Below are positions 6,852-59,074 of a stretch of 64,000 nt of DNA, one piece after another. This DNA comes from a virus. Position 1 is the stretch's first letter. Every line of letters starts with the position of its first letter. The DNA is taken from UHGV virus genome UHGV-0072281; one strand, 5' to 3'. A program made the translations under genes and the position numbers. The notes below the pieces were generated by a model. That model had not been told where the DNA came from. It made no database searches and saw only the letters and a program-made list of their open reading frames with translations.

Positions 6852-6858
6852 ATATTAT
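6849..6858 (+). promoter_or_regulatory. recurring motif TAGATATTAT (copy 1), candidate phage promoter element
   Basis: same 10-mer at 16321-16330 and near-identical CAGATATTAT at 25421-25430, each just upstream of a gene start. Confidence 0.2.
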
Positions 6859-6951
6859 CATTAGGGCACACAACAAAGGAGTACCAGCTGTCCGCGCCGT
6901 GATTTCGTTCTACGGAATACGGAAATGTATAAATCCAACTGGAGAACTAGT

Positions 6952-7638
6952 ATGTTTCGTATCTTCTTTCTTTTACTGGTAACACTTTTCGCGTTTAACG
7001 CATACGCATCCAAATCCGCGCCCAGTACCAAACACCATCGTGAATTCGAAATGATTCAAGACCGTTTCGAACGGGTAAAACCGTTGATTGTGGAAATCTC
7101 TCGAAAGCAGGGTGTTGATCCTAATTTGATGACCACGCTAATCTATCGAGAGTCACGGTTTAATCCGAAAGCGTATAATCGAACGTCTAAAGCGCACAGT
7201 CTGGTTCAGATGCTGCCGAGCACAAAGCGTAATTTGCTAAAACTCTACGGTGCCGAAATCGGACTTAGCCGCAATGCAGATTTGTACAATCCTCGTAATG
7301 CGGTGCTATTGGCTTCCGTCTACGTTAAACATTTAGAAAAGGGGTTAACTAAACGACTCAAACGCAAGCCCACTATTGCAGAAATAGCATTGGCTTATCA
7401 CTGGGGTGAAAGCGGTGCACACGCCAGGATTAAAAGCAAGTCTCGGGCAGCACAACGAGAAATGGCGAGCTTTATGAAAGATGCAACGTTCTACAGTGCA
7501 AAAATCAACAAGCCTGTAGCATCTCGTCAGCTTGCGTTTGCGAAGAAACCAGAACGCCAGATTCAGTTAGCAGAAGTTAACCGAATTTGGGATACGATAA
7601 ACACCAGTTTTCCATTTAAACAAGGAGTCACCCTTTGA
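6952..7638 (+). CDS. secreted soluble lytic transglycosylase (SLT-domain, endolysin-like)
   Basis: signal-peptide-like MFRIFFLLLVTLFAFNAYAS; SLT-like motifs ESRFNPKA...SKAHSLVQMLPST; start moved to 6952 (GGAG RBS) instead of 6925. Confidence 0.55.
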   Translation: MFRIFFLLLVTLFAFNAYASKSAPSTKHHREFEMIQDRFERVKPLIVEISRKQGVDPNLMTTLIYRESRFNPKAYNRTSKAHSLVQMLPSTKRNLLKLYGAEIGLSRNADLYNPRNAVLLASVYVKHLEKGLTKRLKRKPTIAEIALAYHWGESGAHARIKSKSRAAQREMASFMKDATFYSAKINKPVASRQLAFAKKPERQIQLAEVNRIWDTINTSFPFKQGVTL

Positions 7639-9684: not shown

Positions 9685-9718
9685 CCCTACTCCCGGAGGA
9701 GTAGGGTTAATTCTTTTT
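9685..9718 (+). terminator. terminator hairpin ccctactcc-cgga-ggagtaggg + T-run
   Basis: same stem recurs at 10298 and 29620. Confidence 0.6.
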
Positions 9719-10286: not shown

Positions 10287-10297
10287 AATAAAAGCTA

Positions 10298-10332
10298 CCC
10301 TACTCCTTTTCGGGAGTAGGGTAATTTCTTTT
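10298..10332. terminator. bidirectional terminator between convergent genes (ccctactcc ttttcg ggagtaggg)
   Basis: hairpin flanked by T-rich on both strands; lies between + gene end 10286 and - gene end 10331. Confidence 0.6.
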
Positions 10333-18656: not shown

Positions 18657-18662
18657 TACACA

Positions 18663-18694
18663 CCCTAGCTTCGGCTAGGGTTACTTTATATTTA
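18663..18694 (+). terminator. rho-independent terminator (ccctagc ttcg gctaggg + T-rich)
   Basis: 7-bp stem, TTCG loop. Confidence 0.55.
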
Positions 18695-23262: not shown

Positions 23263-23270
23263 AAGCGTTA

Positions 23271-23291
23271 GGGTAGGGGATTACCCTACCC
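23271..23291 (+). other. intergenic stem-loop (gggtaggg gatta ccctaccc) without U-tract, directly before RBS
   Basis: read from sequence; may be processing/stability element or weak terminator. Confidence 0.3.
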
Positions 23292-23307
23292 TAGCTAAGG
23301 AGTCGTT

Positions 23308-29619: not shown

Positions 29620-29660
29620 CTACCCTACTCCTAGACAGGAGTAGGGTATTTTCATTTTTT
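29620..29660 (+). terminator. terminator hairpin taccctactcc tagaca ggagtagggta + T-run
   Basis: third copy of the ccctactcc/ggagtaggg stem family. Confidence 0.6.
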
Positions 29661-30651: not shown

Positions 30652-31197
30652 ATGAAACAAAAACAGTTAACTGATCACGTTAATGCGTTTAAACACTTTC
30701 TGGATAACGCGGGTATAAAACCTGGCGAACAGGCAGACGCATGGACTGCACGTCTATACGGAAGTATCGGCAAAGTCTGTGAATCCACGACAACACACGA
30801 CGGATTGTTTGTTGCTAAAGCAGTAGGCATTGCCTTGTGGGATATTGCCGCTTTAGTTTACGTGATGAATAACGGGGATTTACGCCCCCTTGAAAAATCG
30901 TTACACCGACTACTGGCCATTAAGAAATGGAAAAATGAACATCCTGAGTCAATCGCGGTTACGTTGATACCAGAAGCGGTACTTGCTATCAAAGCGGTAC
31001 GCAGTTGTACCGCCCGTGCACAAATGGAGCGTCGATTACATCTCACGACGCTCTTTTATCAATTGGCCAGAATTGTAAAAATGAACGGCCTAATCTTCGA
31101 CCGGGTTCTACAGAACGGACGTATAAGTTGGACAGAAGAACTAAGTAGTTCTCCGTTCTATACAAAACTAAAACTTAAAGACATTTTGAAGGGTTAA
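30652..31197 (+). CDS. hypothetical protein
   Basis: 181-aa ORF. Confidence 0.5.
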   Translation: MKQKQLTDHVNAFKHFLDNAGIKPGEQADAWTARLYGSIGKVCESTTTHDGLFVAKAVGIALWDIAALVYVMNNGDLRPLEKSLHRLLAIKKWKNEHPESIAVTLIPEAVLAIKAVRSCTARAQMERRLHLTTLFYQLARIVKMNGLIFDRVLQNGRISWTEELSSSPFYTKLKLKDILKG

Positions 31198-31198
31198 C

Positions 31199-31507
31199 AT
31201 GGAAAACTATTCAGGTTGGGCAATTTCGCAGTGCATTGGCTATTCTTTACGTTCTTTAGTGCGTACACTTTATAACAAAAACTCGGGCGAAGCTATTACA
31301 CCGCAGTTATTGGGCAAATTGGAAGTCGAAGTTAACTATAAACTAAAACAGTTACTCGATAATCACGTAAGAACAATGCGTTGGGAGTTCTTGCTACGTG
31401 GTAAGAAGCCTTCAATTACCGTTGTAGCAGAAGGCAGTGAAATCGTTCTCCAATCCAACGCAGACCTGTTTGAAATTTTAACTGAACTCGAAAAGGACAA
31501 AATCTAA
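31199..31507 (+). CDS. hypothetical protein
   Basis: 102-aa ORF. Confidence 0.45.
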   Translation: MENYSGWAISQCIGYSLRSLVRTLYNKNSGEAITPQLLGKLEVEVNYKLKQLLDNHVRTMRWEFLLRGKKPSITVVAEGSEIVLQSNADLFEILTELEKDKI

Positions 31508-31827
31508 TGACTGTGAACGACAATATAAAGAAAAAGATTGACGAGATTATAAGCGTCAGTTTAGATAGAATCGAGTTAATTCCCGAGACTAAGGAAATCA
31601 AATACTACGTTCCCGCAGACGAACTATTTCCAGGTCTTCTTAGAATCTCACCAAAAAAGGTTGAAGAGGCTAAACGCCAATTCGAAGTTCGTGGCCTTAA
31701 GGTTGACATTGTTAACAAAAAACATTTTCATGTAACGTATAGCCAGGAAAACATTATTTTTAGTCCTGAGCAAGCGCAACGTAATTTAGATATTTTAACG
31801 AAACGAATGGGGAATAATAACAAATGA
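31507..31827 (+). CDS. hypothetical protein
   Basis: 106-aa ORF. Confidence 0.45.
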
Positions 31828-32864
31828 AACAGTATTTAGCGTTAATGCAAGACATTCTGGATAACGGCGTTGTCAAAAAAGACCGTACAGGTGTAGGGAC
31901 ACTTTCTGTATTTGGTCGCCAACTACGTTTTGACCTGAAAGAAGGTTTCCCATTAGTTACTACGAAAAAGGTTCACCTGAAAAGTATCATTCATGAACTG
32001 TTGTGGTTCTTAAACGGTGACACTAACGTGAAGTACCTGCAAGAGAATGGGGTAAGAATCTGGAACGAGTGGGCGAATGAAGAAGGGGAATTAGGCCCTG
32101 TCTACGGGCAGCAGTGGCGGGAATGGATGGATACCAAACTGGTTTATCTTTGGGACGAGCGTAGCAAAGACGTATTGAGAGAACGAGGATATCGCTACAT
32201 TGGGACTATCGCAAAGGACGATCCTGAAGAAAGTATCGTTATTTATCGCAAATCTCACGACCAGATCAGTAAAGTTATTCAACAACTTCGTGAAGACCCA
32301 GATTCACGACGCATTATTGTTAGTGCCTGGAACGTAGGTGATCTGGACGATATGGCACTTAACCCATGCCATAATTACTTCCAATTCTACACAACAGAAA
32401 TGACGTTGCTTGAACGACTGGATTGGTACGAAGTAAACGAACCGGAAAAATTTGCGAACGCACCACTTATTACTCACGAAGATATCGATAGCGAAGAACG
32501 ACTTCACGAAATTTTAGATCGTGAGGGCATTCCACGCCGTAAGCTTTCATGTTTTTACATGATGCGGAGCAACGATTACCTACTCGGCGCACCGTTTAAC
32601 GTCGCTTCTTACGCGTTGTTAACCCACATGATTGCTCAACAACTCAATATGGTTCCAGACGAGTTGGTTTATAGTGGCGTAGATGTTCATCTTTACTCTA
32701 ACCATCTGGAGCAGGCAAAACTTCAACTTACACGCGAACCTTACCCGCTACCTAAACTGGTTATCAAACGTAAACCTGATTCTATCTTCGATTACAAATA
32801 CGAAGACTTCGAATTGGTTGGGTATCAATCACACGACACAATTAAAGCTCCCATAGCTGTCTAA
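31824..32864 (+). CDS. thyA: thymidylate synthase (ThyA-type) with two internal insertions
   Basis: near-identical blocks to E. coli ThyA as recalled: [56 protein letters not shown] (catalytic Cys), [29 protein letters not shown]; 346 aa vs about 264. Confidence 0.9.
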
Positions 32865-32871
32865 GGGGTAC

Positions 32872-33168
32872 ATGATGATTAATGAGAAAACGCACGCAGA
32901 GTTAACTTCTTTCGGTATTAGTCGATTAGCTGAACTAAAAACTATCACCGAACGTGCCGGAATAGCATTGCAGGCCAAAGGTAAGTTTGATCAAGCTGAT
33001 ATCGAAATCTTAGAGAAGATTTCGGCAACGTTAAAAGACTTACGTGTATTGAATATTCTTGTTGGTAAATTGGGTGGTCTAAGTAACAAGAAATTGGCCG
33101 AAATACACGGGGTGACGCCAAGCCGAATATCTCAAATCATCAGCAAGGCCAAACGAGATTTTCAATAA
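32872..33168 (+). CDS. small sigma-70 region-4-like / GerE-type HTH protein
   Basis: C-terminal LRVLNILVGKLGGLSNKKLAEIHGVTPSRISQIISKAKRDF resembles sigma70 region 4.2 (L..RE..VL..RFG...TLEEVG..FGVTRERIRQIE.KALRKL). Confidence 0.45.
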   Translation: MMINEKTHAELTSFGISRLAELKTITERAGIALQAKGKFDQADIEILEKISATLKDLRVLNILVGKLGGLSNKKLAEIHGVTPSRISQIISKAKRDFQ

Positions 33169-33202
33169 AGTTATTTCGCTTGTAATTAAAAGGAACAATG
33201 AA

Positions 33203-33666: not shown

Positions 33667-33837
33667 ATGGAAGAATTAGAGACAGTTTCCTGTTACATTC
33701 CTAGAAGACGCGTTATAAAAGAATGTTACATCGATAAAATTTTAATCTCTCGTATCAAGAAAGGTCCACGAAAACATCGAACCAAGAAAGTGTTTATTTA
33801 TAAACACTTCGAAAAGGTTCTAATCCGACCTTACTGA
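33667..33837 (+). CDS. tiny basic protein with KKGPRKHR motif (paralog 1 of 3)
   Basis: hand-translated MEELETVSCYIPRRRVIKECYIDKILISRIKKGPRKHRTKKVFIYKHFEKVLIRPY; GAGG RBS. Confidence 0.35.
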   Translation: MEELETVSCYIPRRRVIKECYIDKILISRIKKGPRKHRTKKVFIYKHFEKVLIRPY

Positions 33838-33865
33838 TTAAATTAACTCATGGAGTAAATTTGTT

Positions 33866-34063
33866 ATGCTGAACGATGTTCTTAGTTTCTCGATAATGTA
33901 TTTCGAACCGAAGAAATTCCGTACCATTGTTACACGTTGTCGGAAAGGGCCGCGTAAAGGACGTAAACGTTTCCAAGTAATTCAACTTTCTTATTCTGCG
34001 CTCCTTGAAGCTAACCCATTCGAGATGAAACCTAATGAAGAAACCGGATTTACTCAACATTGA
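33866..34063 (+). CDS. small basic protein with RKGPRKGRKR motif (paralog 2 of 3)
   Basis: IVTRCRKGPRKGRKRFQV aligns with ILISRIKKGPRKHRTKKVF of the preceding ORF. Confidence 0.4.
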   Translation: MLNDVLSFSIMYFEPKKFRTIVTRCRKGPRKGRKRFQVIQLSYSALLEANPFEMKPNEETGFTQH

Positions 34064-34478: not shown

Positions 34479-35309
34479 ATGGGCGAACGTTTTGACATCA
34501 ACACTATTTACAACATCGTGGTTAATCCTGGTCAACACCTGGAAGAAGTTAACGCACAACTGCGTGCTCTGAATGAAAAAGCAATGCAGTTCGATGCTAT
34601 TTACACAATTGGTGTAAATCCTGGCACCAACCGTGTTCGTGTAGAAGGTAAACGCCACACCGGTAATCAAGAACTGGATATCGAAACGATCGAAGCACCG
34701 ATTAAACTTACAGGTGCCGAATATAACGGTACAGTAATGCACACCGTATCGGTTCCGGTCTACTCTATCGAGAACTGTGTAGAACGTGTTAAAGGTTGGT
34801 CTAAAGAACGTGGTATTCTCGACAACGGTAAACTGGAAACACAAATCACAAAGTTCTTTGAAGAGTTTGGTGAAATCGCAACAGGTATCAGCAAAAACAA
34901 ACCTGAACTGATCATGGACGGTATCGGCGATGCGTTAGTGGTTCTGGTGAACATTCTGGAACTGGGTAAAGAATACCATGACGAATACTTAACAACGGCC
35001 GATATTATTAGTAGCGGTTTAACTATGCAACTTCGTGATGTTGCAAATGTTGAAGCTTGTGCAAACGATCATAAATTCCCACATCGAAAATACCTGGAAG
35101 CAACTAAATCTTTTTCCACGTCTTTCTTAAATACTAACAAAGACGATAACCTGTTCGATCATGGTTTGTATTGCCTTGCTTGTCTCGCGCTGTATTACAA
35201 ACTGGACATTCGCCATTGTTTCTCTTTAGCCTGGCATGAAATCAAAGACCGTAAAGGTTACCTGAACGCCGACGGCATCTTTGTAAAAGATGCAGACTTG
35301 GCGAAATAA
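34479..35309 (+). CDS. MazG-like nucleotide pyrophosphohydrolase domain (C-terminal) with N-terminal extension
   Basis: FFEEFGEIATGI...DGIGDALVVLVNILE...WHEIKDRKG fits the all-alpha NTP-PPase EExxE...D..GD...L...K.R pattern. Confidence 0.5.
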   Translation: MGERFDINTIYNIVVNPGQHLEEVNAQLRALNEKAMQFDAIYTIGVNPGTNRVRVEGKRHTGNQELDIETIEAPIKLTGAEYNGTVMHTVSVPVYSIENCVERVKGWSKERGILDNGKLETQITKFFEEFGEIATGISKNKPELIMDGIGDALVVLVNILELGKEYHDEYLTTADIISSGLTMQLRDVANVEACANDHKFPHRKYLEATKSFSTSFLNTNKDDNLFDHGLYCLACLALYYKLDIRHCFSLAWHEIKDRKGYLNADGIFVKDADLAK

Positions 35310-35317
35310 ATAAAAGT

Positions 35318-35370
35318 ACCTACCTCCTTTCGGAGGTAGGTTAACTTTCTTATTTTTTTTTCTTTTTTTT
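35318..35370. terminator. bidirectional terminator (acctacctcc tttcg ggaggtaggt + long T-run), repeat copy 1
   Basis: near-identical element at 59033-59074; sits between convergent gene ends. Confidence 0.65.
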
Positions 35371-38204: not shown

Positions 38205-41200
38205 TTAACCCGCACGTCTAACGTTAAGCTGTCGTGCTGGCTGTTCAACGGACATTTGTCGTGATGCTGAGCCTGCTGGTGCCATAGGTTGGGTCGATAC
38301 GGTGTTTTGTACCGGCTGCGGACGTTGTTTAAGAATCGTGACAATCTCTCTGAGATACCCCGCCGATTCTTTCGCAACAGCCAACTGCTGGACACTAATC
38401 GGATCACCGCTACTGAGTGTAGGCCCGTTTTGTGCATCAGAAGTAACCGCAGGTGCCGGTTTACTCGTTGCTGCTACGCGCTGCACAGCGCCTTCTTTCA
38501 CCTTCTCGACATCTTCTTCAGGCAACCCTTCGTTTCTAGCTCCAGCCGCAACGGTCTCCGCAATCGTAGAGGCGTCGCCGCCAGCACTACTACCGCCAGG
38601 TGACGGTACTGCCGGACCACCACTGGTTGCAGCTTTGACATTGTCTGCACCCATCGCACCTTTCTCTGCTAACGCATCGTCACGACGCGCAGCATTCGAT
38701 GCGGGCAAGTTATCCGTCGCTCCAGAAATTGATGGATCGTTAGCTGCTCCTGCTGCTACCGCTGGAGAGGAGGCAACCGCAGGCGTTAGCCCTTTCACCA
38801 TGTCTTTCGTTGAAGCTGGGTTAGCCGCAATTTCGTTTGTCGCCACAGCACCCATACGGCGGTTCAGTTCATTAATAACTTCGCCAACAGTACGAATACG
38901 AACAATCTGTTCGCCTCGCATTTCGTAGAAGACTCCCTTATTACCTCTAAGGATTTGAGGAGTAATACCTTCTGCTTTGTCGGCTGGCATGTTCGGATTC
39001 TGCCGCCATGCATTAAGGAACTTCTTACCACCGCCTGGACCCAAGAAGTGATACAGATACGCAACAGCCGGGGGCGGTTCTACACCACCCAGGTCTTTCT
39101 GCGCCTGCATGATATTATCACGAATAAACTGTACCCCGAGGATGGTATTTGCCCACGGGTCATACTGGTTTACTTGCGGAATACCGTACCGACGAGAATA
39201 CCCCTTCATCATTCCAGACCACGTACTGTCGATGAACTGGAACAACCCTGCTGCTGACGCACCTGGGTTCTTGACGCCGTATCTGAAACCAGATTCAGCT
39301 TTCGCCATCGCAATCGCAATCGCAGGCGGAACACCTAAGGTATTTGCGACATCTGCAATCATTGCTTTAACGCCTTCTACGTTAGGTGTCTTACCACTAC
39401 CCAGTTTACTGATTGGATATTTCTCAGCCAAGGTTTTGTAATCACCTTCTTTGACGTCCCCGAGTTTAATCCCGGATTGGCCCGTAGAGAACTTCGCGTA
39501 ATTGCTGATCCCCATCTCACCCACAACTTGAGATAAGTCACCCGGTGTACCGTAAGACGACCCACCGTTTGGCAAGTACCCATCGTTAGACGCTGTACCC
39601 CAATCAACGACACCTTTAAAGCGTTCTTTGCCATCTTCGTCGGTTTGGTACATTCTCGTCGCACGATCGGCTTTCTGCCACTTCGCACGTTTACCTGCTG
39701 CGGGAGTAGAGCGCAGGGTGTTACGAACAGCCAGGTCAGGTTCTTTTGACAGTTCTTTCAGGTTGGCAAGTTCAGTAGCAACAGAACCTGCATCAGTGTT
39801 TGCTTCCTCGCCTAGCGGGTTGAATGGAATCTCCCACACGGACTGTCGAATACCGCCCTTCATGTTGTAAGCGCCACGAATCATCAACGCCAATTCGTAC
39901 ATGAACCCACCGGATACTTTCAATTCGGTAGGGTCTGCTTGCGGAATGTAACGTTTCAGACCAACGACGTAGGTCATATACGCCGGTAAGAAACGGTTGT
40001 AGAACCAGTTCTTACAACGCTCCTCTTTAGGACCACCTATCAAGTCAGGCGAGATAACCGCAATGGCTTCTTTCCAGTTGCCTTTATAGGTACAGTTCTT
40101 CACATCAATGTCTTTCAACACGTTCTTCTCTAACAACGTGAAAAGATTACGCGTTGTTTGGTTGATAGTAACCGCACCGTAGGTTTTCCACCTGACCGAT
40201 TCCAGGTCTTCCAAATCGCTTTTCTTCGGTAATGAATGCCAGTCAACTTGGATTTGAACCTGCTCAGTCCCGTCTTCCCATCCTTCAACCTTCGCAACTT
40301 TCTCGTTACGTTCAGCATCCGCATTCGCCAATACCTGACTGGTTTCAGCAACGGACGCAATTTTGTGGCCTTCGACAGCGTCACGCATACCTGAACGTTG
40401 TTTCCGTTTGTCGTCAGTACGCATGTTGATTGACCGCCACACACGTTCCTGTGCTTCGACAACCTCTTCCCCTGACAAGAACTCTGCCGGAGTAAAGGTA
40501 ACGAAATCCCACGCTTTAGAGAACCAACCCTGGTTAACTTTACGCGGGTCAGTCAACGAACGGAATTCCGCAGAATCTTTACCCATCTTCATTTTGTTGT
40601 AGAGGGTAATCATATCCGCTTTCGACACTTTCTTCGGATCACCAACATCTGCCAAAGCGATATCGTTATCCATAGACTTCAGTGCTGAAATCCAACGGAG
40701 GTAAATCGGTGCGAAACGTTGTAACATAAACGCAGTAAATGCTAACATCTCACCACGTTCTTCCAAGTTTACACCAAACCCTTCTGCGAGTTTCTTCACG
40801 TCTTCGGAAGACAAGCCACGTAATTGTGCTTCACCCCCTTCGGTATACGAGACGTAAGGTTTCAAAGCGTCTTCTAAATAACGGGCTTTCATACCGTCTT
40901 CAGAAGACCACTGGTCGTAGTCACGGAAACCGTATTGTGCCAGACGCATATAGTCGAGGTACTGCGCTTTCACACGGGTAGCGCATTTATACGCCCAATA
41001 ACCCAGACCAGCGGCAGTCGCACCGATCACAATTGCAGGCCAACCCACCGCAGCTACCACCGTAGATGCAGCCGAGGCTACCGCAGTCACCGCCGGAACC
41101 GCTAAACGCTGTACGGCAAACTTACCAACATTCCACGCTGCTTTACCGAGGAACCCGGTAGGTTTAAAAATACCCCACTTCGCAACTTTACCCAGTATGG

Positions 41201-44200
41201 AACCCACCGTACCTAAGATACTCACGATTGGTCCTACCAACGGTAGCCCTTTGAGGAAGTCCATCACCCCGCCTTTACGTCCTTTCTGTTCGGCGGATTT
41301 CTTGGCTTTCTCTTCTTCCTTAGAACGTCTACGACGACGGAAGAATTGGAAGTAGTCGCGTTTTTCATCATTGGCTGCCGGTTTGTTACGTTGTCCGAAC
41401 TTACTGAACATCGTACGAATCAAGCCATCAGGCGCACCAGCACGTTCCGCAGAGTCGCGCATGGTGTTAAACCAGGACATTTCCTGGAGGTTAACCATCC
41501 GGTTTAAACGTTCCAGTAATGCTGAACCAACACTTTTCGCTTTCTGCTTACCTTTGTTGATAACGCGTCCTGCGCTATCCGTTGCGGTTTCGAAATCCTC
41601 TTTCGCTGCGTTAATCACGCGTGTTGGAGAAACCTTACCACGGGCGTATAAGTGTTGACGGTAAAACTCAGCAACGTCATCGTCACGGCCTGCTAAACGA
41701 GACTCCGTCCGATAGCGAGTACCGATATCGTAGCGTGGATCGCGGAAGCTATCTACCGTTTCGCCAAAGCGTCCACGGAAACGGTCAAACCAGCCTTTAC
41801 CCGCAGCACCCCAACGAGACAGTCTATCACCAACTCCCTGACGGAAACGTGAGAATCGGTCACGTTGTCTGCCTCGCCAATCCCGGAAATTCTGGAAATA
41901 GTCTTTAAACCCGTCGCGGAAATCCTTAACGCGGTTAAGCATCCCTTTGATAGATTTCGACCCAACGTTTTTCTCCAGTTGCTCCGTCCAGGATTCATCT
42001 TCAGGCTCACCATCTAAACGACGGTTAAGGAGTTTATAGATGCGAATCAGGATATGGTTGGTCTTACGGCCATTCGACCAGGAGAACATGCTGAAACCGC
42101 CGCCAGAACCCCCATCCTTACGATTCTGCCACCACCGGGTAAGCGGGTTGTCGGTCGCTAACTCTTTGAATTTCTCAAAGCCACGTTTTGCATTGTTCCA
42201 CAAACGAGCGGGCATTCCCGTTACACGGGAAATCATGCTTTGTAAACGTGTTTTCTCACTGCCTTCAGGAATCTCGTTAAGCCACTCACGTGCTTTCTCG
42301 AAGATAGACGCTGCTCTTGGTGAGATTAGACCAATAAGTTTCTTCGGTAAGTTAACGGCTTTGTTTACCGCTGTACCTGCTTTACCGGAGATATACTGGA
42401 ACAGGGCCTGGAGTTTACCGCCTTTATAGAAGCGCAGTTTACCCGCAGCCGCTAAGTCCGCCGCTGCGAGAATCAAGTTCCCGGCTTCGTCAACAATATC
42501 ACGACCCAGCTTAATGTCGTCTAACGAGCTGAGTTGTACCAGCTTGTTGGTTTTAGGGTCAGCCTGATAATACTCACCTGCCTCTAAACGGCTTCCTTGT
42601 AAAACAACATTGCCTTTCTCGTCGTAGATGTCTCGAACACCAAGAACGCCTTTCCCGAACGCTACTGCTGAATTCCAGCCTGTGGACAGCGTACCAGTAA
42701 CTAAACCTTTCAGTCGTTCAAAAACACCTGGACCGTCAGAAGACCCACCGGAGAATTTCCCACGGATAAAACTGCCCAGTGACTGTAAACGCCCTTTCCC
42801 TCTCAGGAACATGTTCTTCGCAAAACGACCAGCGCCCGTACCGGTGTCCCAAAGTACACCCGCCCAACGACGGAACAGCCCACTTTCACCAAGCACAATG
42901 CGCTTACGTTTGCGTTTGTTACCGGTACTACCCGCGTCTTCAGATGCGTCACCCTCACCGTCACGACCACCACCTAAGCTTGCCAACAGAATACCTTCTT
43001 CATCCATGTTCTTGACATGTTTCAGAATTTCCTGCACGGTGTTGGATTCGGATTTGTTACGGATAGCATCAACGATTCTATCAAACTGTTGCTCTAAACC
43101 CGCATTAGTGTCAGGCCGTTCGCTTAACAGTTCAACAAAGTTGGTGGATTTTTCACCGTAGAGGACAGCAGCAAGTTGTCGTGCTGACAGCCCACGGCCA
43201 CCACGTCCACCTTTACCTTTAACGGTGTCAATAGTCGACTCGTCACCGGTTACGGAAGCGTCTACACCCAAACGACGTAAGTAGTCACCTAGCGCAGAAC
43301 CGTTTTTCAGTTTGCGCTGGATTTCTTGCTCACGGGTTAACGAACGACCAGAGCGAGTTTTCCCCATGGCCAGGTCGTTGTATAGCGTATACGGATCGTT
43401 AATGTCTTTATCTACATCAAACCGATCGTTCTTCGCATCGTACTTAAAGATACCTGCGTCACGTAACGCATTCTCGCCGTAGATAATTGAGGCTTCGTCT
43501 ACCGTGTTTTGACGTGCACGAATTGTTGACTGAATAGCTGAAATCTTACCAGCAATCTCGTTGCTCAGTTCGTGATGACCGCCTGCCAGTTCTGAAGACC
43601 GTGCTTCTAAGACCGCCTGAATCGCTTCTACCGCGTTCGCATTCATGTAACGATACATGTGCATCGGGTCTTTCAGCAGACTGCCTACGTCGAATGCCTT
43701 ACCTTCAGACGCACGGGATTCGATATAGTCCGCCAGCGCCTGGCGAGTTTTCGAATCCAGAGTTTTGTCTTTGTCGATAAAGTCAACGGTTTCGTTAATG
43801 TACTGCTGTAAACGTTTACGCTGTTCGTCATTAGCAACTGCCTTACGTACGCGATTGCCAATAACTTTACGATCCACCATACCTCGCGTGGTCAGGTCAT
43901 AAACCTGATCGTGGTGTTCGCCATATCCACGACGAATAGATTTGTTAATCTCCGTCAGCAAGGTCGGGATGACTTCCGTGATGCTAAGATATGCTTTACG
44001 GTCGAACTTCGCTGCTGCTGATAACGCCTCTGCTGAACGTTCTTCTAAAGCTAATCCCTCACGACGCAGCGGTGTCACTAACCCCATCTCGTGCATTAAA
44101 CGGAAGACAGTGGCCAATGGACCATCTATCTCACCAGCAATCGCTGAGTTAGAGATAGAAGATAAGTTACCGAACCCGTAGCGTGCCAACTGAAGCCGTT

Positions 44201-45338
44201 TCATGACTTCTGGGTTCTTTTCTAACTCACTGCGTGTCCAGTTCTGTAAACGTTCTACTTGCGGTTGTAAGAATCGTTTTGCTAACCAACCACCGGCAAA
44301 CCCTACGACTTTACCTCGGCTATTCGTACGACGACGTTCTGGCGACAGTGAAGAACTGTCTTCCATGTCGAAGTCGTCTTCCTGACCCATTGACAGAACT
44401 TGTTCTAATAGCCCACGTCCGTCACTGAAGATATTCGAAATCTTTTTCTTCGCGTTCTCACGGATTTGTTCAACGAACGAATCTGCGTAACGTAAGGGGT
44501 TCATCCATTCGGCAGCTTTACGTTTTACGTTAGCCCAACGAATTTCAGAGAATTCCTCTTTTGCATAATCCGGCAACGCGGTGTTTTTAACAATCGCTTC
44601 AAGTGCCGGAGTGTTACGGCTAAACTCGTCCTGTTTAAGTTTAGCAATATCTTGCAACGCGAATAACGTACGGTATTGCAGCTCTAGCTGTTTACGCTGA
44701 ACGTTAAGCATCACCCCACGACTTAAACTGGTCGTCAGGTTAACGTCTTTCGCAATACCGATAACCGTCTGGAACAGCGCATCGGACTTCATGTCCTTGA
44801 TGGTGTCACGAAGACGGTCTTCTACCATCCCTTCCTGAACTTCACGTTGCTGTTCAGGTGTTTGTGGGGTACCCGCAAAAACAGTGTCTAACTCACGATC
44901 CATTAATGCCTGTTTAGGATCGTAATTCCCGTAATCGTACTGGTCGCTTTTCGCCCATTTATCGATCTTACGGGTTACACTGTCAGGCAAATACCGTTTT
45001 AGGGTTGGGCCTAATTGACGAGCTTGTGCCTTCACCACGCGGGAGGTCTTTTCAATCTCGTCTTTCGTATGGGCCAGAATGTCTTGACCTGCGGCTTTGA
45101 CGTTCTTATAACCTTCATAAGCGTCAGACGCCGGTTTTGGCATTCCTTTTAAAATGACCTGATCACGTTTATTTTCGGGCCAGATAGTCGACAATGCCGA
45201 CTTACGGGCAGCACGAAATGTGTCCATGACCGGGTTACGCGATTGGTCTTGTTGACGAGGGGGCTCATCAAAATCGTCCCAGTCGTCCATGTTATCAAGA
45301 TCGATTTCATCGAAATCGTCTTTACCTTTTTTAGCCAT
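38205..45338 (-). CDS. giant virion-type protein (2377 aa) with lytic transglycosylase (SLT) domain, TM segments and low-complexity regions
   Basis: SLT motif AKAESGFRYGVKNPGASAAGLFQFIDSTW (about 38900-39330); hydrophobic block LPLVGPIVSILGTVGSILG...AIVIGATAAGLGYWAY (about 40980-41290); acidic N-terminus DDFDEIDLDNMDDWDDFDE; Arg-rich repeats; Ala/Pro/Ser-rich C-terminus. Confidence 0.7.
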   Translation of the reverse strand: MAKKGKDDFDEIDLDNMDDWDDFDEPPRQQDQSRNPVMDTFRAARKSALSTIWPENKRDQVILKGMPKPASDAYEGYKNVKAAGQDILAHTKDEIEKTSRVVKAQARQLGPTLKRYLPDSVTRKIDKWAKSDQYDYGNYDPKQALMDRELDTVFAGTPQTPEQQREVQEGMVEDRLRDTIKDMKSDALFQTVIGIAKDVNLTTSLSRGVMLNVQRKQLELQYRTLFALQDIAKLKQDEFSRNTPALEAIVKNTALPDYAKEEFSEIRWANVKRKAAEWMNPLRYADSFVEQIRENAKKKISNIFSDGRGLLEQVLSMGQEDDFDMEDSSSLSPERRRTNSRGKVVGFAGGWLAKRFLQPQVERLQNWTRSELEKNPEVMKRLQLARYGFGNLSSISNSAIAGEIDGPLATVFRLMHEMGLVTPLRREGLALEERSAEALSAAAKFDRKAYLSITEVIPTLLTEINKSIRRGYGEHHDQVYDLTTRGMVDRKVIGNRVRKAVANDEQRKRLQQYINETVDFIDKDKTLDSKTRQALADYIESRASEGKAFDVGSLLKDPMHMYRYMNANAVEAIQAVLEARSSELAGGHHELSNEIAGKISAIQSTIRARQNTVDEASIIYGENALRDAGIFKYDAKNDRFDVDKDINDPYTLYNDLAMGKTRSGRSLTREQEIQRKLKNGSALGDYLRRLGVDASVTGDESTIDTVKGKGGRGGRGLSARQLAAVLYGEKSTNFVELLSERPDTNAGLEQQFDRIVDAIRNKSESNTVQEILKHVKNMDEEGILLASLGGGRDGEGDASEDAGSTGNKRKRKRIVLGESGLFRRWAGVLWDTGTGAGRFAKNMFLRGKGRLQSLGSFIRGKFSGGSSDGPGVFERLKGLVTGTLSTGWNSAVAFGKGVLGVRDIYDEKGNVVLQGSRLEAGEYYQADPKTNKLVQLSSLDDIKLGRDIVDEAGNLILAAADLAAAGKLRFYKGGKLQALFQYISGKAGTAVNKAVNLPKKLIGLISPRAASIFEKAREWLNEIPEGSEKTRLQSMISRVTGMPARLWNNAKRGFEKFKELATDNPLTRWWQNRKDGGSGGGFSMFSWSNGRKTNHILIRIYKLLNRRLDGEPEDESWTEQLEKNVGSKSIKGMLNRVKDFRDGFKDYFQNFRDWRGRQRDRFSRFRQGVGDRLSRWGAAGKGWFDRFRGRFGETVDSFRDPRYDIGTRYRTESRLAGRDDDVAEFYRQHLYARGKVSPTRVINAAKEDFETATDSAGRVINKGKQKAKSVGSALLERLNRMVNLQEMSWFNTMRDSAERAGAPDGLIRTMFSKFGQRNKPAANDEKRDYFQFFRRRRRSKEEEKAKKSAEQKGRKGGVMDFLKGLPLVGPIVSILGTVGSILGKVAKWGIFKPTGFLGKAAWNVGKFAVQRLAVPAVTAVASAASTVVAAVGWPAIVIGATAAGLGYWAYKCATRVKAQYLDYMRLAQYGFRDYDQWSSEDGMKARYLEDALKPYVSYTEGGEAQLRGLSSEDVKKLAEGFGVNLEERGEMLAFTAFMLQRFAPIYLRWISALKSMDNDIALADVGDPKKVSKADMITLYNKMKMGKDSAEFRSLTDPRKVNQGWFSKAWDFVTFTPAEFLSGEEVVEAQERVWRSINMRTDDKRKQRSGMRDAVEGHKIASVAETSQVLANADAERNEKVAKVEGWEDGTEQVQIQVDWHSLPKKSDLEDLESVRWKTYGAVTINQTTRNLFTLLEKNVLKDIDVKNCTYKGNWKEAIAVISPDLIGGPKEERCKNWFYNRFLPAYMTYVVGLKRYIPQADPTELKVSGGFMYELALMIRGAYNMKGGIRQSVWEIPFNPLGEEANTDAGSVATELANLKELSKEPDLAVRNTLRSTPAAGKRAKWQKADRATRMYQTDEDGKERFKGVVDWGTASNDGYLPNGGSSYGTPGDLSQVVGEMGISNYAKFSTGQSGIKLGDVKEGDYKTLAEKYPISKLGSGKTPNVEGVKAMIADVANTLGVPPAIAIAMAKAESGFRYGVKNPGASAAGLFQFIDSTWSGMMKGYSRRYGIPQVNQYDPWANTILGVQFIRDNIMQAQKDLGGVEPPPAVAYLYHFLGPGGGKKFLNAWRQNPNMPADKAEGITPQILRGNKGVFYEMRGEQIVRIRTVGEVINELNRRMGAVATNEIAANPASTKDMVKGLTPAVASSPAVAAGAANDPSISGATDNLPASNAARRDDALAEKGAMGADNVKAATSGGPAVPSPGGSSAGGDASTIAETVAAGARNEGLPEEDVEKVKEGAVQRVAATSKPAPAVTSDAQNGPTLSSGDPISVQQLAVAKESAGYLREIVTILKQRPQPVQNTVSTQPMAPAGSASRQMSVEQPARQLNVRRAG

Positions 45339-45367: not shown

Positions 45368-46993
45368 GTGAATAAACTTAATTGGGTTGACTTTTATCTG
45401 CTCAATGTAAACAAGTCTCTTGTGTCGCGATTACGACCCGTCACGACCACAGATACTTTTCAAGGGTTGACAAAAAACTTTCACCCTGAAGGGTTGTACT
45501 CCACGGAGATATTCGGTCTTACGGGAAGTGAAGCCCGAGACTCAATGTTTTCTTACATTGATATTAAATTAGATATCATTTCGCCGACGGTGTGTTTGGC
45601 GTTATTCCAACTAAAACAACTCTACGAAGAAATTTGTTCTGGAAAACGCTACGCAACCTGGAGCGAAAAAGAAAAAGATTTTGAACCGGCTTTGCCTGGC
45701 GACGCTGGCGCAGATACCGGTTTTAACTTTTTCCTTAGTCACTACAACGACTTAAAACCCGGACGTAACGAATCGTTACAACGTGACGAAACGGTGGATT
45801 TCTTCGAGAAGTTCCGTCCCGTGAGTCTTAGCCGCTATGTTCTCGTATTACCCGCGGGTTTACGTGATTTGGTGGTTAGACAAGACGGTAGGGAACAGGA
45901 AGAGGAAATCGGTGGGTTATATCGTCGTTTGATTTCTTTGGCCAGGGCGATTCCTGACCGCGCTACACGGGTTGAATTAACGAACCCTGTACGATGGAAA
46001 CTCCAACAAACCTTTAACGAAATCTGGATGTACTTCTTTAACATCCAGGACGGTAAAGGTGGCTTCCAACGTCGTAAAGTGACGTCGCGTAAACTGATGA
46101 ACGGGACACGTAACGTATTGTCCTCATTCTCCACAGGCTCTAAATGCATGGGGCGTGAGGATGCGATTCGACCGACCGACACCAAAATTGGTTTGTATCA
46201 GGGTCTGAAAGCGTTGCTACCTGTTGCGCAATACCAGATACGTGAACGTTACCTCGGTAACATTCGTGCTGGCGATGGCAACCTTTATGGCGTAAACACC
46301 AAAACGCTTAAACGCGAGTTCTTGGAGGTTGGGGGTCGTGTTTACGACACCTTTACCACAGACGACGGTATCGAAACATTAATTAACCGGATGGAAGCTC
46401 GCGAGCTTCGTCATCAACCGTTAATGATTAACGATACCCATTACGTCGCGCTGGTCTACCAAGACAACAAACATTTTAAGGTGTTCTACGATATCGACGA
46501 ACTGCCTAAAACGTTTGACCGTAAAAACGTCCACGGAATGACCCTGGTAGAATTACTCTACTTATCGGGTTACGAACTGTGGAACAATTATTTCGGTTTC
46601 GTTACACGTTATCCCGTCACCGGTCGAGGCTCGACGTACTCATCGACCATAAGATTGGAGACCACCACGTCATCTTTATACCTAAAAGAACTGGAGGATG
46701 ACTGGGAGACTGAAAAGCCACACGGAGCTATCAGTTATCCTGACAGGACGGTTCCGACCTTTGTCGAGTCGATGGCACCGCACCCGTCACGATTGGGTGG
46801 CTTAGGGGGTGACTACGATGGTGACACCGGTTCACTTAACGCGCCTATGTCGCAAGAAGCACTCGAGGAAAACCGTAACTGGATACACTCGAAGAACTAC
46901 TGGTTCGATTCTGACGGGAATTTCAAAATCAATCCTGTCAACAACGTGATTAAACGTGCGACGCAAGCGTTATTAAAGAATCCAAAAGGCTAA
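45368..46993 (+). CDS. multisubunit RNA polymerase beta-prime-like subunit, N-terminal part (split beta-prime; GTG start)
   Basis: blocks parallel E. coli beta-prime as recalled: HPEGLYSTEIFG (ERDGLFCARIFGP), VLVLPAGLRDLVVRQDGRE..GGLYRRLISL (VLPVLPPDLRP..DLNDLYRRVINR), GKGGFQRRKV (GKQGRFRQNLLGKRV), GGDYDGDTGSLNAPM (NADFDGDQMAVHVPL); zinc-ribbon cysteines absent. Confidence 0.75.
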   Translation: MNKLNWVDFYLLNVNKSLVSRLRPVTTTDTFQGLTKNFHPEGLYSTEIFGLTGSEARDSMFSYIDIKLDIISPTVCLALFQLKQLYEEICSGKRYATWSEKEKDFEPALPGDAGADTGFNFFLSHYNDLKPGRNESLQRDETVDFFEKFRPVSLSRYVLVLPAGLRDLVVRQDGREQEEEIGGLYRRLISLARAIPDRATRVELTNPVRWKLQQTFNEIWMYFFNIQDGKGGFQRRKVTSRKLMNGTRNVLSSFSTGSKCMGREDAIRPTDTKIGLYQGLKALLPVAQYQIRERYLGNIRAGDGNLYGVNTKTLKREFLEVGGRVYDTFTTDDGIETLINRMEARELRHQPLMINDTHYVALVYQDNKHFKVFYDIDELPKTFDRKNVHGMTLVELLYLSGYELWNNYFGFVTRYPVTGRGSTYSSTIRLETTTSSLYLKELEDDWETEKPHGAISYPDRTVPTFVESMAPHPSRLGGLGGDYDGDTGSLNAPMSQEALEENRNWIHSKNYWFDSDGNFKINPVNNVIKRATQALLKNPKG

Positions 46994-46996
46994 TCA

Positions 46997-49900
46997 ATGT
47001 TGCTCATTAAACAGTTTAACCAACGCTTCTCTGTGCGTAAAACAGACGAGTTTGGTAATCCGAGGATTATCCCGCTCGAGAAGCTCCAGATACCACGAGG
47101 CTCTATACTGCACGTCGTGGATCTCGATCAGGTGGTCTTAGCGCCACCTGCTACGCTGGAAATCATCCAGCCGTTGGAAAAACCTGCACAAATTCGCCAC
47201 CACTTTAAACTTCCCGAAGAAGGGATCAGTGGGCATCCACGTAACAAACCTGTGCAGGGGCAAGAACGTGCTATCTTTGCGTACCATCGCGCAAACCGTC
47301 CAATTCGTCGTCTGACTTCAGACGACCTGATTCGTAAAGACTTAAAAGTTCTCCTTATTGAGAACTATACACCGATGTTATCGCACTACTATTATCCAGA
47401 CACTCAACTAGCCTGGTACGATAGACTGCGTAACATCCAGCTGTTAATGACTAACCAGTTCAAATACGACACGCAAGAATACATGCGTCAGAACTACTTC
47501 GTGATTGTGCTGGGGTCAACGTTACCGTCTTTCCAGAAGTTCCAAACGACGTATAACGATCGTGTTAAAAGCAAGATTGAAAAGTTCCAGGACTTTAACC
47601 TGCTGTGGTTATTGGAACTGTTCGCTTGGGCATACGGTAAACAGTCTGATTCTCTGTTTGCAGGAATGGACTTAACGCAACTGTCTCGAATGAACTTCAT
47701 CTTCACCCACAACAGCGGCTTTACGTCGATGAACATGGGTGTCGTGGAGAAGATGCGTAAATCGTCCGGTGGTCGTTTAAGTGACGATCAGATGGCCAGG
47801 ATGTTCTATCGTACGTTAGTGCGTGTAATGACACAAGCACCGTCTAATGCGTACGAAGCTGAATTCCTGACACCGGAAGGTGATGAACGTATCTTTGTTA
47901 AGGACATCGAAGAGGATGCCGTTGACGTCGTTGACGATACAGACGTTGTTAACGACGCTGTGGTTGAATCGGATAACGCTTTCGATGAAAAAGAAGACCT
48001 CGTTATTGAGGAGCCGAAAGAAGACGTTAAGCCGACGACTATCGTTATCGAAAAAACGATTGCTCACGATGACATTATCAAACAGGAAGCGCAGAAACTG
48101 GCTGAGGCGGGCCGCTTAAGCTCCAAAGCGTATCAGTTCCTGTCTGATTCGACCAAACGTTTCGTTCAGTTACCAAACCCGTACAACCCGAAAGAGACTT
48201 ACGGTGAAGCATTAACCATTCACGAAAAAGACATTGCCGTGAAAGCGGAACCGAAGAAAGTCCAGCGACTGGTTACGGATGAAGGTTGGGCAGAAAACGT
48301 TACCGACCAAATGGTGAAACAATACAACCAGACCATGATGAGTAAAGACGTACTGGCAGCAGTCGCCAGTTCTCAACGTCTTGGTTTGGCTATTCACAAC
48401 CACACGATCGAGAAAGAGATTTCCGTTACGGGAACTATCGAACACCACACCCTGCGTGTTCAACCGATTGGCGGTGAACCGACGACGGTACGTTTCTCTA
48501 TCCCTGGCTTAACTGAAGATGGTACCTGGGTAGCGAACGGTGTTGAATACACCATGCGTCGTCAGCGTGTAGACGTTCCGATTCGTAAGGTCGCCCCAGA
48601 CACCGTAGCGTTAACTACCGCTTACGGTAAAAACTTCGTACGTCGTAGTGACAAAGTCGCAAACGACTACGGCCGTTGGTTAACGAACGCGATTATCACG
48701 CGTGCCGTAGACCCGACCAACACGGAGATCACCGACGCACGACTCGCGAACGTTTTCGATCCTACTGAGAAACTTCCTCGTCAGTATACGGAGATTGCAC
48801 GTCGTATCGCCAGCTTTAATGCAGGCGGGTATATGTGGAATTTCGATTATAAAGAAGCGGTTAACTTCTTTAATGACGAACAGCTTACTGACGCAAACAA
48901 CGTTGAGATGTTACCGGTTGCGAAACGTCCACGCAGTGAAGTTATTGTGGTGATGGATACCAAGTCCATGCTCTATACCGTTAAGGGTAAAGAGTGTACA
49001 CCGCTGGGCACCATCTCTGAAGTGCTTGGTTTCAGTAGCCAGAAAGCGCCAAGAGAGATGACCGAGCTTTCACTGATGGGCAAATCGCTCTCACTGGGCT
49101 TCATCTTCTCGTTCTATTTAGGTCTGCAAGGGATGCTTAAACATTTCGGCATTCAGTACGAAATCGTCCCCGTTGGCCAACGTGTAGATAAGAGCACGTA
49201 CGATTCTATTATTCGTCTCCAGGACAGTAAGTTCCTGGTAACGTGTGATAACGATCAGCAACGAATGATTCTACACGGTCTGGATAAGTACCTGAAACAC
49301 CTGGTAGCTTATACCGAGTCCGAAGTCGACCGCGAAGACATTTACCTGAACTTAATACGTGATGCAGATGGGCTAACTCCACGCTACATCAACGAGCTGA
49401 AACAAATGCGGGCCGCGTTTGTTGATGACATGCACGCACGTATCCTCAGGAAAATGGGTGAACCGGAAACCTTTATCGGGCTATTGGAACGTTCTAACGA
49501 ACTGTTACAAACCGACCACTCTTTACCGGAGATTAACGGTGATGAGATGATGTTCTTAGGGAACCAACGTATTTCCTACCACATCTACACTGCGATGGTC
49601 AGGGCGATGCGTAACTACAACAACGCACCGAACAGTAACCGTAAGTTCGAACTTACTCAGGACATGATTTGGGGCGCAATTAACTCCGACCCGTCTGTTC
49701 TGTTAGCGCCGGGTGCTAACCCTATCCAGTCGATTAAAGAGAAAGACGTTATCACCATGGGTGGTACGGGTGGCCGTAACCGTAAAACAATGGTTTATCA
49801 CACGCGTGAGTTCCAACCGAGTGACCTGGGTATTGTTTCCGGTAACACGGTGGATAACGGTGATGTAGGTATTACTGCTTTCGCCACTAACAACCCACGT

Positions 49901-51163
49901 TTCGATACCGTTGACGGCACAACCTATAAACGGGATGAAAAGAACCTGAAACCGAGCGATACTCTGTCATTTATAGATGGTCTCGTACCAGATACCCTGA
50001 TGGACGACGCTAAACGTCAAAACTTCGTTGGGATTCAGTTAGGTTCTGCCACCAGTTGTAACGGCGCTACCACTACCCCTTATCGTACCGAACAGGAGAA
50101 ATTTGTCGCTCACCGTACGTCGGTGAAACACGCACGCGTTATTGATAAAGCAGGTAAAATCACCGGTCTGTCTAAAGACCATATCGAAATTACGTACGAA
50201 GATGGAAGTAAAGAAGCCTTTCCTCTAGGGCGCTGGTTCGGCCCCCACGAAGGTACCTTCTATCCGCACACCCTGGTGACTCGCTGGAAAGCCGGTGACA
50301 AACTCCCGGCCGGGGCAGTCATCACTTATAACGAGCAACACTTTGAACCCGATATCTACGACCCTACTCAGGTTTCCTGGAAAAACGGGGTGCTGGCTAC
50401 CGTCGCTTTAATCGAGGCTGAAGAAGTAATCGAAGACTCCAATGCTATTTCTGAACGGTTCGCGAAGAAAATGGTTGGGCAGGTTACTAAGCTGAAAGAA
50501 GTGGTGATTAACAGCAACCAGATGCTCCTGGAAATCGTTAACGAAGGGGAACACGTTGACGTCGACACAATCCTATGCACATTTACTGACGACCTTACGG
50601 GGGATATGAGTACCTTTAGTAAGGAAGCAGCACAAACGTTGCAAAGTTTAAGTTCGTACGCACCTCGTGCTGGGGTTCGTGGTATCGTGGATAAAATCGA
50701 AGTCGTGTATCACGGTGAAACCGAAGACATGACGCCTTCACTGGCAGAACTGGTACGCAAATACGATCGTATTCGTCGTAAAGCAGCGTTGGCTGTTAAT
50801 CGTGGCGATCCGGTATCAGGGAGTGTTAATGGGGATTACCGTGTAGAGGGTGTACCGTTAGCCTTTAACTCGCTTTGTGTTCGATTCTTTATTACGCACG
50901 AAGTTGAAATGGCCGCAGCGGATAAGATGGTTATTGCTAACCAGCTGAAAACCACTGTACAAGAAGTGATGTACGGGGAAAACAAAACAGAAGATGGCGA
51001 CGACATTGACATTTTGTTCGGTCGCGATTCTGTCGACGCACGTATCGTAGGTTCTATCCAACGAATCGGTACCGCAAATGCTGTGGGTGAACAAGCAGGG
51101 ATTCTTATCGGTCGTATTCTCGACGGCGAGTCCGTGCCTGAGTTACCAGCGACGCTTAAATAA
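46997..51163 (+). CDS. large hypothetical protein (1388 aa) co-transcribed with beta-prime-N; possibly another RNAP subunit or virion protein
   Basis: starts 4 nt after beta-prime-N stop; no unambiguous RNAP motif found by eye. Confidence 0.55.
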   Translation: MLLIKQFNQRFSVRKTDEFGNPRIIPLEKLQIPRGSILHVVDLDQVVLAPPATLEIIQPLEKPAQIRHHFKLPEEGISGHPRNKPVQGQERAIFAYHRANRPIRRLTSDDLIRKDLKVLLIENYTPMLSHYYYPDTQLAWYDRLRNIQLLMTNQFKYDTQEYMRQNYFVIVLGSTLPSFQKFQTTYNDRVKSKIEKFQDFNLLWLLELFAWAYGKQSDSLFAGMDLTQLSRMNFIFTHNSGFTSMNMGVVEKMRKSSGGRLSDDQMARMFYRTLVRVMTQAPSNAYEAEFLTPEGDERIFVKDIEEDAVDVVDDTDVVNDAVVESDNAFDEKEDLVIEEPKEDVKPTTIVIEKTIAHDDIIKQEAQKLAEAGRLSSKAYQFLSDSTKRFVQLPNPYNPKETYGEALTIHEKDIAVKAEPKKVQRLVTDEGWAENVTDQMVKQYNQTMMSKDVLAAVASSQRLGLAIHNHTIEKEISVTGTIEHHTLRVQPIGGEPTTVRFSIPGLTEDGTWVANGVEYTMRRQRVDVPIRKVAPDTVALTTAYGKNFVRRSDKVANDYGRWLTNAIITRAVDPTNTEITDARLANVFDPTEKLPRQYTEIARRIASFNAGGYMWNFDYKEAVNFFNDEQLTDANNVEMLPVAKRPRSEVIVVMDTKSMLYTVKGKECTPLGTISEVLGFSSQKAPREMTELSLMGKSLSLGFIFSFYLGLQGMLKHFGIQYEIVPVGQRVDKSTYDSIIRLQDSKFLVTCDNDQQRMILHGLDKYLKHLVAYTESEVDREDIYLNLIRDADGLTPRYINELKQMRAAFVDDMHARILRKMGEPETFIGLLERSNELLQTDHSLPEINGDEMMFLGNQRISYHIYTAMVRAMRNYNNAPNSNRKFELTQDMIWGAINSDPSVLLAPGANPIQSIKEKDVITMGGTGGRNRKTMVYHTREFQPSDLGIVSGNTVDNGDVGITAFATNNPRFDTVDGTTYKRDEKNLKPSDTLSFIDGLVPDTLMDDAKRQNFVGIQLGSATSCNGATTTPYRTEQEKFVAHRTSVKHARVIDKAGKITGLSKDHIEITYEDGSKEAFPLGRWFGPHEGTFYPHTLVTRWKAGDKLPAGAVITYNEQHFEPDIYDPTQVSWKNGVLATVALIEAEEVIEDSNAISERFAKKMVGQVTKLKEVVINSNQMLLEIVNEGEHVDVDTILCTFTDDLTGDMSTFSKEAAQTLQSLSSYAPRAGVRGIVDKIEVVYHGETEDMTPSLAELVRKYDRIRRKAALAVNRGDPVSGSVNGDYRVEGVPLAFNSLCVRFFITHEVEMAAADKMVIANQLKTTVQEVMYGENKTEDGDDIDILFGRDSVDARIVGSIQRIGTANAVGEQAGILIGRILDGESVPELPATLK

Positions 51164-56148: not shown

Positions 56149-56189
56149 GGGTAGTCTATCCAGTGGATAGACTACCCTACCTATTTTTA
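56149..56189 (+). terminator. rho-independent terminator (gggtagtctatcc agt ggatagactaccc + T-run)
   Basis: 13-bp perfect stem. Confidence 0.65.
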
Positions 56190-56282
56190 ACCCTATTGAA
56201 AAATATCTCAGATATATATTACTTAGGTGAGCGTTGTAGAATTACACGCTATTCGACTTGTTAACCTAAAGGAGTATTAAAG

Positions 56283-59032: not shown

Positions 59033-59074
59033 ACCTACCTCCTTTACGGAGGTAGGTAAACTTATTTTTTTCTT
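59033..59074. terminator. bidirectional terminator (acctacctcc tttac ggaggtaggt + T-run), repeat copy 2
   Basis: about 45-bp near-identical copy of the 35318 element. Confidence 0.65.

Follow-up and report, generated by a model that had tools for sequence, protein, structure and literature searches.

The 64,000-nucleotide (nt) stretch of virus genome UHGV-0072281 analyzed here (the window) encodes, directly downstream of a thymidylate synthase homolog, a helix-turn-helix (HTH) protein of 98 amino acids (aa) that on balance is probably an accessory small dimeric DNA-binding transcription regulator and not a subunit of the phage RNA polymerase (RNAP). The window comes from a Salmonella/Escherichia coli jumbo phage, a relative of Salmonella phage SPN3US (Seoulvirus, phiKZ-like). 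The locus comprises the following features:

31824..32864, + strand: thymidylate synthase homolog thyA (346 aa), conserved upstream neighbor of the HTH gene
32863..32868, + strand: Shine-Dalgarno sequence AAGGGG, identified by sequence inspection and overlapping the thyA stop codon TAA (32862-32864)
32872..33168, + strand: HTH gene (98 aa; 97 aa from the second ATG), supported by open reading frame (ORF) calling, orthologs, the ratio of nonsynonymous to synonymous substitution rates (dN/dS) and family alignment A2
32865..33180, + strand: approximate extent of a presence/absence cassette, cleanly deleted in five close relatives

The HTH ORF is a real gene, since its orthologs are under low dN/dS and its sequence cluster has a large number of members. 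The 98-aa reading frame called in the first-pass annotation was confirmed at exactly its original coordinates, with a start 7 nt past the thyA stop; a second in-frame ATG at 32875 is better spaced from the Shine-Dalgarno sequence and is the start of the 97-aa versions annotated by PGAP. The dN/dS, 0.07-0.10 overall, is 0.10 when compared with an ortholog of 91% identity and 0.08 when compared with one of 79% identity, and in both comparisons it is lower within the HTH segment (0.03-0.07). Proteins 79-99% identical to the HTH protein fall into 13 clusters defined at 90% identity, and its own cluster contains 58 member sequences; several of these recur on dozens of contigs each, with lengths reaching 228 kb. 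Public pipelines (PGAP, IMG) already name the protein a sigma factor, while the entry DAY52715.1 carries a FocB/PapB name given by third-party annotation of a metagenome-assembled genome.

Alignment A2 represents a family defined in this analysis, namely small proteins combining a helical hairpin with a sigma-4-like HTH. Members are full-length matches of ~90-110 aa that carry the motif G..K..AE....S..R[IV][SC]Q[IL] and are encoded on phage contigs, jumbo-sized where size is informative. The window protein is a member, and an exhaustive HMMER search returned ~20 full-length small homologs. They are found on contigs of 56-300 kb with long arrays of small unidirectional genes; further jumbo-sized carriers are 234-239 kb contigs and one 263-kb contig, and in 300-kb Klebsiella/Serratia phages the HTH module forms the N-terminus of a 224-aa protein. 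Neither PHROG nor Pfam holds a dedicated model. The family thus defined appears to be an uncharacterized small HTH family, known to date solely from contigs of the jumbo-phage type. Stand-alone members are also encoded away from thyA in other jumbo phages, and two or three paralogs can be present in one phage; the window has a single copy. In L003, paralogs lie within ~3 kb of each other (2931-3221, 3618-3944 and 5738-6040), the extra copies matching the family hidden Markov model with E-values of 1.6e-16 and 2.3e-5, and in L008 a weak second copy (6600-7121) directly follows the first. One NCBI protein, P0011 (131 aa, on a 2.8-kb contig), is identical to the HTH protein over its N-terminal 90 residues; its tail opens with a 14-residue run identical to the end of a reverse-strand ORF at window positions 32829-32978, so that it looks like an inverted-junction assembly chimera and not a real fusion.

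An AlphaFold2 model generated with the family alignment as input (predicted local distance difference test score, pLDDT, 86.8) consists of two long helices followed by the HTH, and the same helices were obtained when residues 41-98 were modeled by themselves (pLDDT 96.9):

32884..32976, + strand: helix 1, residues 5-35, first hairpin arm and putative dimerization surface (AlphaFold2 model; hydrophobic residues at 3-4 spacing)
32992..33072, + strand: helix 2, residues 41-67, second hairpin arm and counterpart of sigma region 4.1 in profile alignments (AlphaFold2 model, profiles)
33085..33162, + strand: HTH, residues 72-79 and 83-97, in register with sigma region 4.2

The two long helices are modeled as an antiparallel hairpin that makes up two thirds of the protein, and the second continues straight into the HTH. 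The protein is therefore not essentially a bare, stand-alone region 4 with a short helical N-terminus, as had been supposed from the sequence, but a hairpin-plus-HTH protein. The HTH motif reads G-L-S-x-K-K-L-A-E-x-x-G-V-T-x-S-R-I-S-Q-I, and conservation in the family reaches 90% or more at G69, A76, R85 and Q88. Mean pairwise identity across the family is 15% in helix 1, the fastest-evolving part, 20% in helix 2 and 38% in the HTH. The HTH segment is basic, its net charge being +4 in the window protein and between +3 and +5 in most relatives, and the isoelectric point of the whole protein is 9.8.

The resemblance to sigma region 4 is not significant in the single sequence but is a top-ranked and consistent signal at the level of family profiles. 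When the single sequence was searched against Pfam, HTH_3 (9e-4) ranked above Sigma70_r4 (4e-3), and every match was under its gathering cutoff (GA), Sigma70_r4 scoring 17.1 bits against a GA of 24.1; the sole match of a phmmer search of residues 41-98 against the PDB was a MarR protein (E=1.4). The C-domain consensus of the family, in contrast, matched Sigma70_r4 at 1.7e-5 and 24.6 bits, all its top NCBIfam matches were sigma-family models, and phrog_1740, a sigma factor family, was matched at 8.5e-7. Searched against the PDB, the family profile matched WhiG (1.9e-4), FliA (2.7e-3) and NarL (about 0.1). In hhalign, E. coli FliA 194-231 and RpoD 571-598 align in register with the family. Positions 106-159 of the 165-position model TIGR02937 align with residues 42-95 of the protein. 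Sigma70_r4 is matched by 17 of 22 family members at E<=0.1; among ten members rescanned individually P0045 alone clearly passes, and P0047 and P0032 pass in a separate scan. Weak matches to the sigma-like mimic domain of PhyR were also obtained. No Sigma70_r2 or other region-2 match was found in the protein or the consensus using Pfam and NCBIfam. The other HTH families fit less well. GerE (PF00196) is matched by 3 of 22 members and by the consensus at E=0.088 (12.9 bits; GA 23.5). HTH_3 (PF01381) reaches 19.7 bits over 26 residues of the HTH core (GA 23) and 17.2 bits with the consensus, and the modeled DNA-binding domain has three helices as opposed to the five of an XRE domain. The Mor family (PF08765) is not matched by the single sequence and is matched by the consensus at 15.2 bits (GA 24.9) in an alignment confined to the HTH (positions 59-98 of the 107-position profile), P0045 being the sole member that passes.

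Five of six close relatives, in which the downstream 148-aa neighbor is 95-100% identical, do not carry the HTH gene. In these genomes a clean ~315-nt indel leaves ~30 nt between the thyA stop and the 148-aa gene. Two of the five are ~222-kb circular "plasmids" (E. coli and Enterobacter ludwigii); the other three are IMG/VR genomes of 220-225 kb. SPN3US-type genomes have no homolog of the HTH gene anywhere, three unrelated genes occupying the slot, and in the phage database none of the SPN3US- and phiKZ-type genomes has it. Since close relatives do without it, the HTH gene is dispensable and the basic lytic program does not depend on it. The two "plasmids", of ~90% nt identity, are NZ_CP173450.1 (L016, E. 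coli 98232, human urine) and NZ_CP134650.1 (L017, E. ludwigii, gull cloaca); the HTH cluster is also present in many assemblies of Salmonella enterica isolates, on contigs of 223-228 kb. Such isolate-borne phage contigs suggest phage carriage or pseudolysogeny, or else persistent contamination of co-cultures.

Within the SPN3US-like clade the HTH gene is located at the 3' end of thyA in at least five backgrounds with differing downstream neighbors, namely the window, L030 (without the 148-aa gene), L031 (followed by an SPN3US-type 176-aa gene), L006-L008 and L011. In L006-L008 its ATG overlaps the thyA stop (ATGA in L008), and from this arrangement and the Shine-Dalgarno overlap in the window the gene appears to be co-transcribed and tightly, translationally coupled with thyA. 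The HTH proteins of L008 and L011 are only 28% identical within flanking genes that are 80-95% identical (ThyA 86%), which by sequence comparison indicates allelic replacement and not drift. The final ~60 nt of thyA diverge beside the cassette. Among close relatives, nucleotide identity taken per 100 nt varies from 65% to 100% across the thyA region, which is thus mosaic, and no conserved partner gene of the HTH gene was found in the compared contexts. Because the slot is mosaic and rapidly exchanged, a strain-specific modulatory role is suggested.

In the favored reading as a small dimeric regulator, the N-terminal antiparallel hairpin would pair with that of a second copy to give a four-helix-bundle dimer, as its hydrophobic pattern and the analogy with Mor suggest. 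The dimer would present two basic sigma-region-4-type HTHs to a DNA site and repress or activate transcription along the lines of Mu Mor/C or GerE, without serving as a sigma subunit. The conserved recognition-helix residues align with positions at which sigma region 4 contacts DNA. The protein would be expressed from the thyA-mazG nucleotide-metabolism unit, with translation linked to thyA, and might tune phage genes, act on host genes or serve in inter-phage competition. HTH transcription factors of their own are found in 92% of jumbo phages, and a sigma factor in no phage of the phiKZ group (PMC7824862). Several observations weigh against this reading. Apart from generic helical hairpins, the full-length fold has no significant counterpart in the PDB, and the only matches to its N-terminal half are coiled-coil bundles or designed helical ones. 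No promoter or operator adjoins the HTH gene, which begins 7 nt past thyA, and the recurrent intergenic motifs searched for operator candidates are terminator-like RNA hairpins with no obvious operators among them. Swapped alleles keep the recognition helix but have a wholly different N-terminus, the reverse of what specificity-switching repressors usually show. Finally, in nucleus-forming phages a regulator made in the cytoplasm must be imported to reach phage DNA.

The first-pass annotation took the phage to bring its own multisubunit RNAP. The window contains the genes for one:

45368-46993 and 46997-51163: split multisubunit RNAP beta/beta' genes

It had gone on to propose a promoter-specificity factor for this polymerase, that is, an auxiliary subunit or minimal sigma reading a -35-type element. 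We regard this as very unlikely, even though the beta/beta' genes share the window with the HTH gene, Sigma70_r4 is the top profile match of the consensus and public pipelines have already chosen the sigma factor name. Most close relatives do without the gene, as does every SPN3US- or phiKZ-type genome in the phage database, and the protein has no region 2. Reviews state that RNAPs of this kind have no sigma homolog (PMC7824862, PMC13282480), and in the non-virion RNAP of phiKZ the sigma-4 site is held by the C-terminal domain (CTD) of gp68 and promoters have no conserved -35 element (PMC7618050). Dispensability, an already filled sigma-4 site and the lack of a conserved -35-like element thus disfavor such a factor (PMC7618050, PMC13282480), and of the earlier interpretation as a whole only the domain type is supported. 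A region-4 mimic might instead be directed at the host, binding the beta-flap tip, FlgM (anti-sigma-28), Rsd or class II activators and so perturbing host transcription, a decoy role that is consistent with the closest profile matches being sigma-28-type region 4 (WhiG, FliA), with the weak PhyR matches, with the accessory, fast-evolving nature of the gene as expected of a host-interaction factor and with the genes for host-transcription takeover that reviews ascribe to RNAP-encoding jumbo phages (PMC13282480). We consider it unlikely. Identity to region 4 of E. coli FliA is 26% over 38 residues, giving no sign of recent host capture, and the best-conserved positions are the polar and basic recognition-helix residues expected for DNA contact, both of which argue mildly against a decoy; moreover, helix 41-67 is predicted to be continuous, unlike the two-helix arrangement of region 4.1 by which the flap-binding surface is formed.

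Two further explanations start from the mobility of the locus. By analogy with the free-standing homing-endonuclease genes clustered at td/nrd genes, the gene could belong to a selfish mobile cassette that targets the 3' end of thyA, either as its DNA-binding part or as a relic, and would then play no regulatory part in the phage. The precise indel at one post-thyA site in several lineages and downstream contexts, the divergence of the thyA end beside the cassette, the allele replacement between near-identical backgrounds and the matches of the HTH core to the repeated HTH modules of HNH and GIY-YIG type proteins (P0023, P0035) all fit, but the protein has no nuclease domain and is under strong purifying selection, stand-alone relatives reside away from thyA, and the whole region is mosaic with other unrelated indels, leaving this explanation improbable. 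A factor for inter-phage competition, carriage or immunity, which would silence a co-infecting relative or maintain a ~222-kb episomal state, is likewise improbable. Both complete "plasmid" genomes lack the HTH gene, which is therefore not required for carriage, and the recognition helix is conserved, not diversified, between alleles. On the other hand, isolates of Salmonella, E. coli and Enterobacter do contain relatives of the phage, in the form of circular ~222-kb "plasmids" and 223-228 kb contigs, the variety of alleles at one fixed locus is reminiscent of immunity regions, and a role in pseudolysogeny has been proposed for jumbo-phage HTH repressors (PMC7824862). At the far end of speculation, and unlikely, a swappable, stand-alone sigma-28-like region-4 module might act on the host and not on the phage, as a dimer that either occupies sigma-28-type -35 elements or titrates a partner of sigma region 4 such as FlgM or the beta-flap. 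SPN3US is a flagellum-dependent phage (PMC11428620). If this were true, flagellar or global host transcription would be rewired during infection or episomal carriage, by a sigma-domain mimic in a phage that does not need host RNAP.

Relative to sigma-70 region 4 (PF04545; FliA, WhiG), the HTH protein lacks regions 2 and 3 and cannot, for that reason, be a sigma factor; its counterpart of region 4.1 is one continuous 27-residue helix that pairs with an extra N-terminal helix, and equivalents of RpoD R584 and E585 are missing. Dispensability among close relatives argues against a core RNAP-binding role. The likeness to Mu Mor/C (PF08765) lies in the proposed architecture and working mode, with sequence similarity limited to the HTH and no family membership; Mor and C use host sigma-70 RNAP, whereas phiKZ-like phages do not for their own genes (PMC7618050). 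Matches to GerE/LuxR are far weaker than those to sigma region 4 (0.088 against 1.7e-5 for the consensus, and NarL at ~0.1 against WhiG at 1.9e-4), and the C-terminal dimerization helix is absent, so that dimerization would have to come from the N-terminal hairpin. The CTDs of phiKZ gp68 and AR9 gp226 come from the same kind of phage, that of gp68 taking the place of sigma region 4 (PMC7618050). However, gp68 is a permanent 521-aa subunit that contacts DNA by loops instead of an HTH and has no sequence similarity to other proteins (PMC7618050), whereas the 98-aa protein is dispensable. The fimbrial regulators FocB/PapB are, like the HTH protein, small all-helical HTH DNA-binding proteins of ~100 aa.

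Most likely, then, the protein is a small phage HTH regulator that comes from an uncharacterized family and whose HTH is sigma-4-like. A sigma-like gene would be notable in Chimalliviridae-type jumbo phages, which are described as having no sigma homologs and host-independent transcription. Because it combines only a sigma-region-4-type HTH with a hairpin, is dispensable and is swapped from strain to strain, the protein ought not to be listed among phage sigma factors, and the names given by PGAP and IMG are over-annotations. The gene does define an uncharacterized small HTH family, marked by an unusual, fixed link with thyA and by the swapping of alleles, and cassette-plus and cassette-minus phages offer a tractable natural system for accessory transcription factors in nucleus-forming phages.

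The HTH gene is part of a + strand unit, bounded by hairpins, that contains several unknown genes, thyA, the HTH gene, the 148-aa gene and a MazG-like gene:

29621..29648, + strand: terminator-like hairpin with T-run, upstream boundary of the thyA/HTH/mazG unit
34479-35309: mazG (MazG-like nucleotide pyrophosphohydrolase)
35318..35341, no strand assigned: bidirectional terminator-like hairpin, end of the unit past mazG

At 346 aa, the ThyA homolog exceeds canonical bacterial ThyA by ~80 residues. Among close relatives, two further small presence/absence cassettes flank thyA: a 106-aa gene on its upstream side (31507-31827), missing in L019 and L020, and a variable segment at ~33680-33880, downstream of the 148-aa gene. 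A 181-aa ORF (30652-31197) and a 102-aa ORF (31199-31507) match phrog_10269 (299 aa) at positions 35-163 and 201-298, a split that is the same in the E. coli "plasmid" relative, and the MazG-like protein matches phrog_10269 at positions 5-83. Hairpins of one family recur in the window at 9685-9710, 10295-10325, 18660-18685, 23269-23295, 29621-29648, 35318-35341, 56170-56200 and 59033-59056. Their stems are related, with cores ACCCTA...TAGGGT or ACCTACCTCC...GGAGGTAGGT and usually a T-run after them, and are conserved beyond the need of a plain terminator. L011 has a perfect 20-nt palindrome, CGGGTGGGTATACCCACCCG, without a T-run between thyA and the divergent HTH allele (5950-5975), and nothing like it is present at the thyA/HTH junction of the window or L008.

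At the DNA level the window has no match in the phage database, and an identical stretch in IMG/VR is contig IMGVR_UViG_3300014543_000002. One of the RNAP subunits is 86% identical to its SPN3US counterpart, and the window also encodes tail sheath and virion proteins. A 2377-aa ORF (38205-45338, - strand) adjoins the virion-protein genes and lies just upstream of the divergent RNAP subunit genes.
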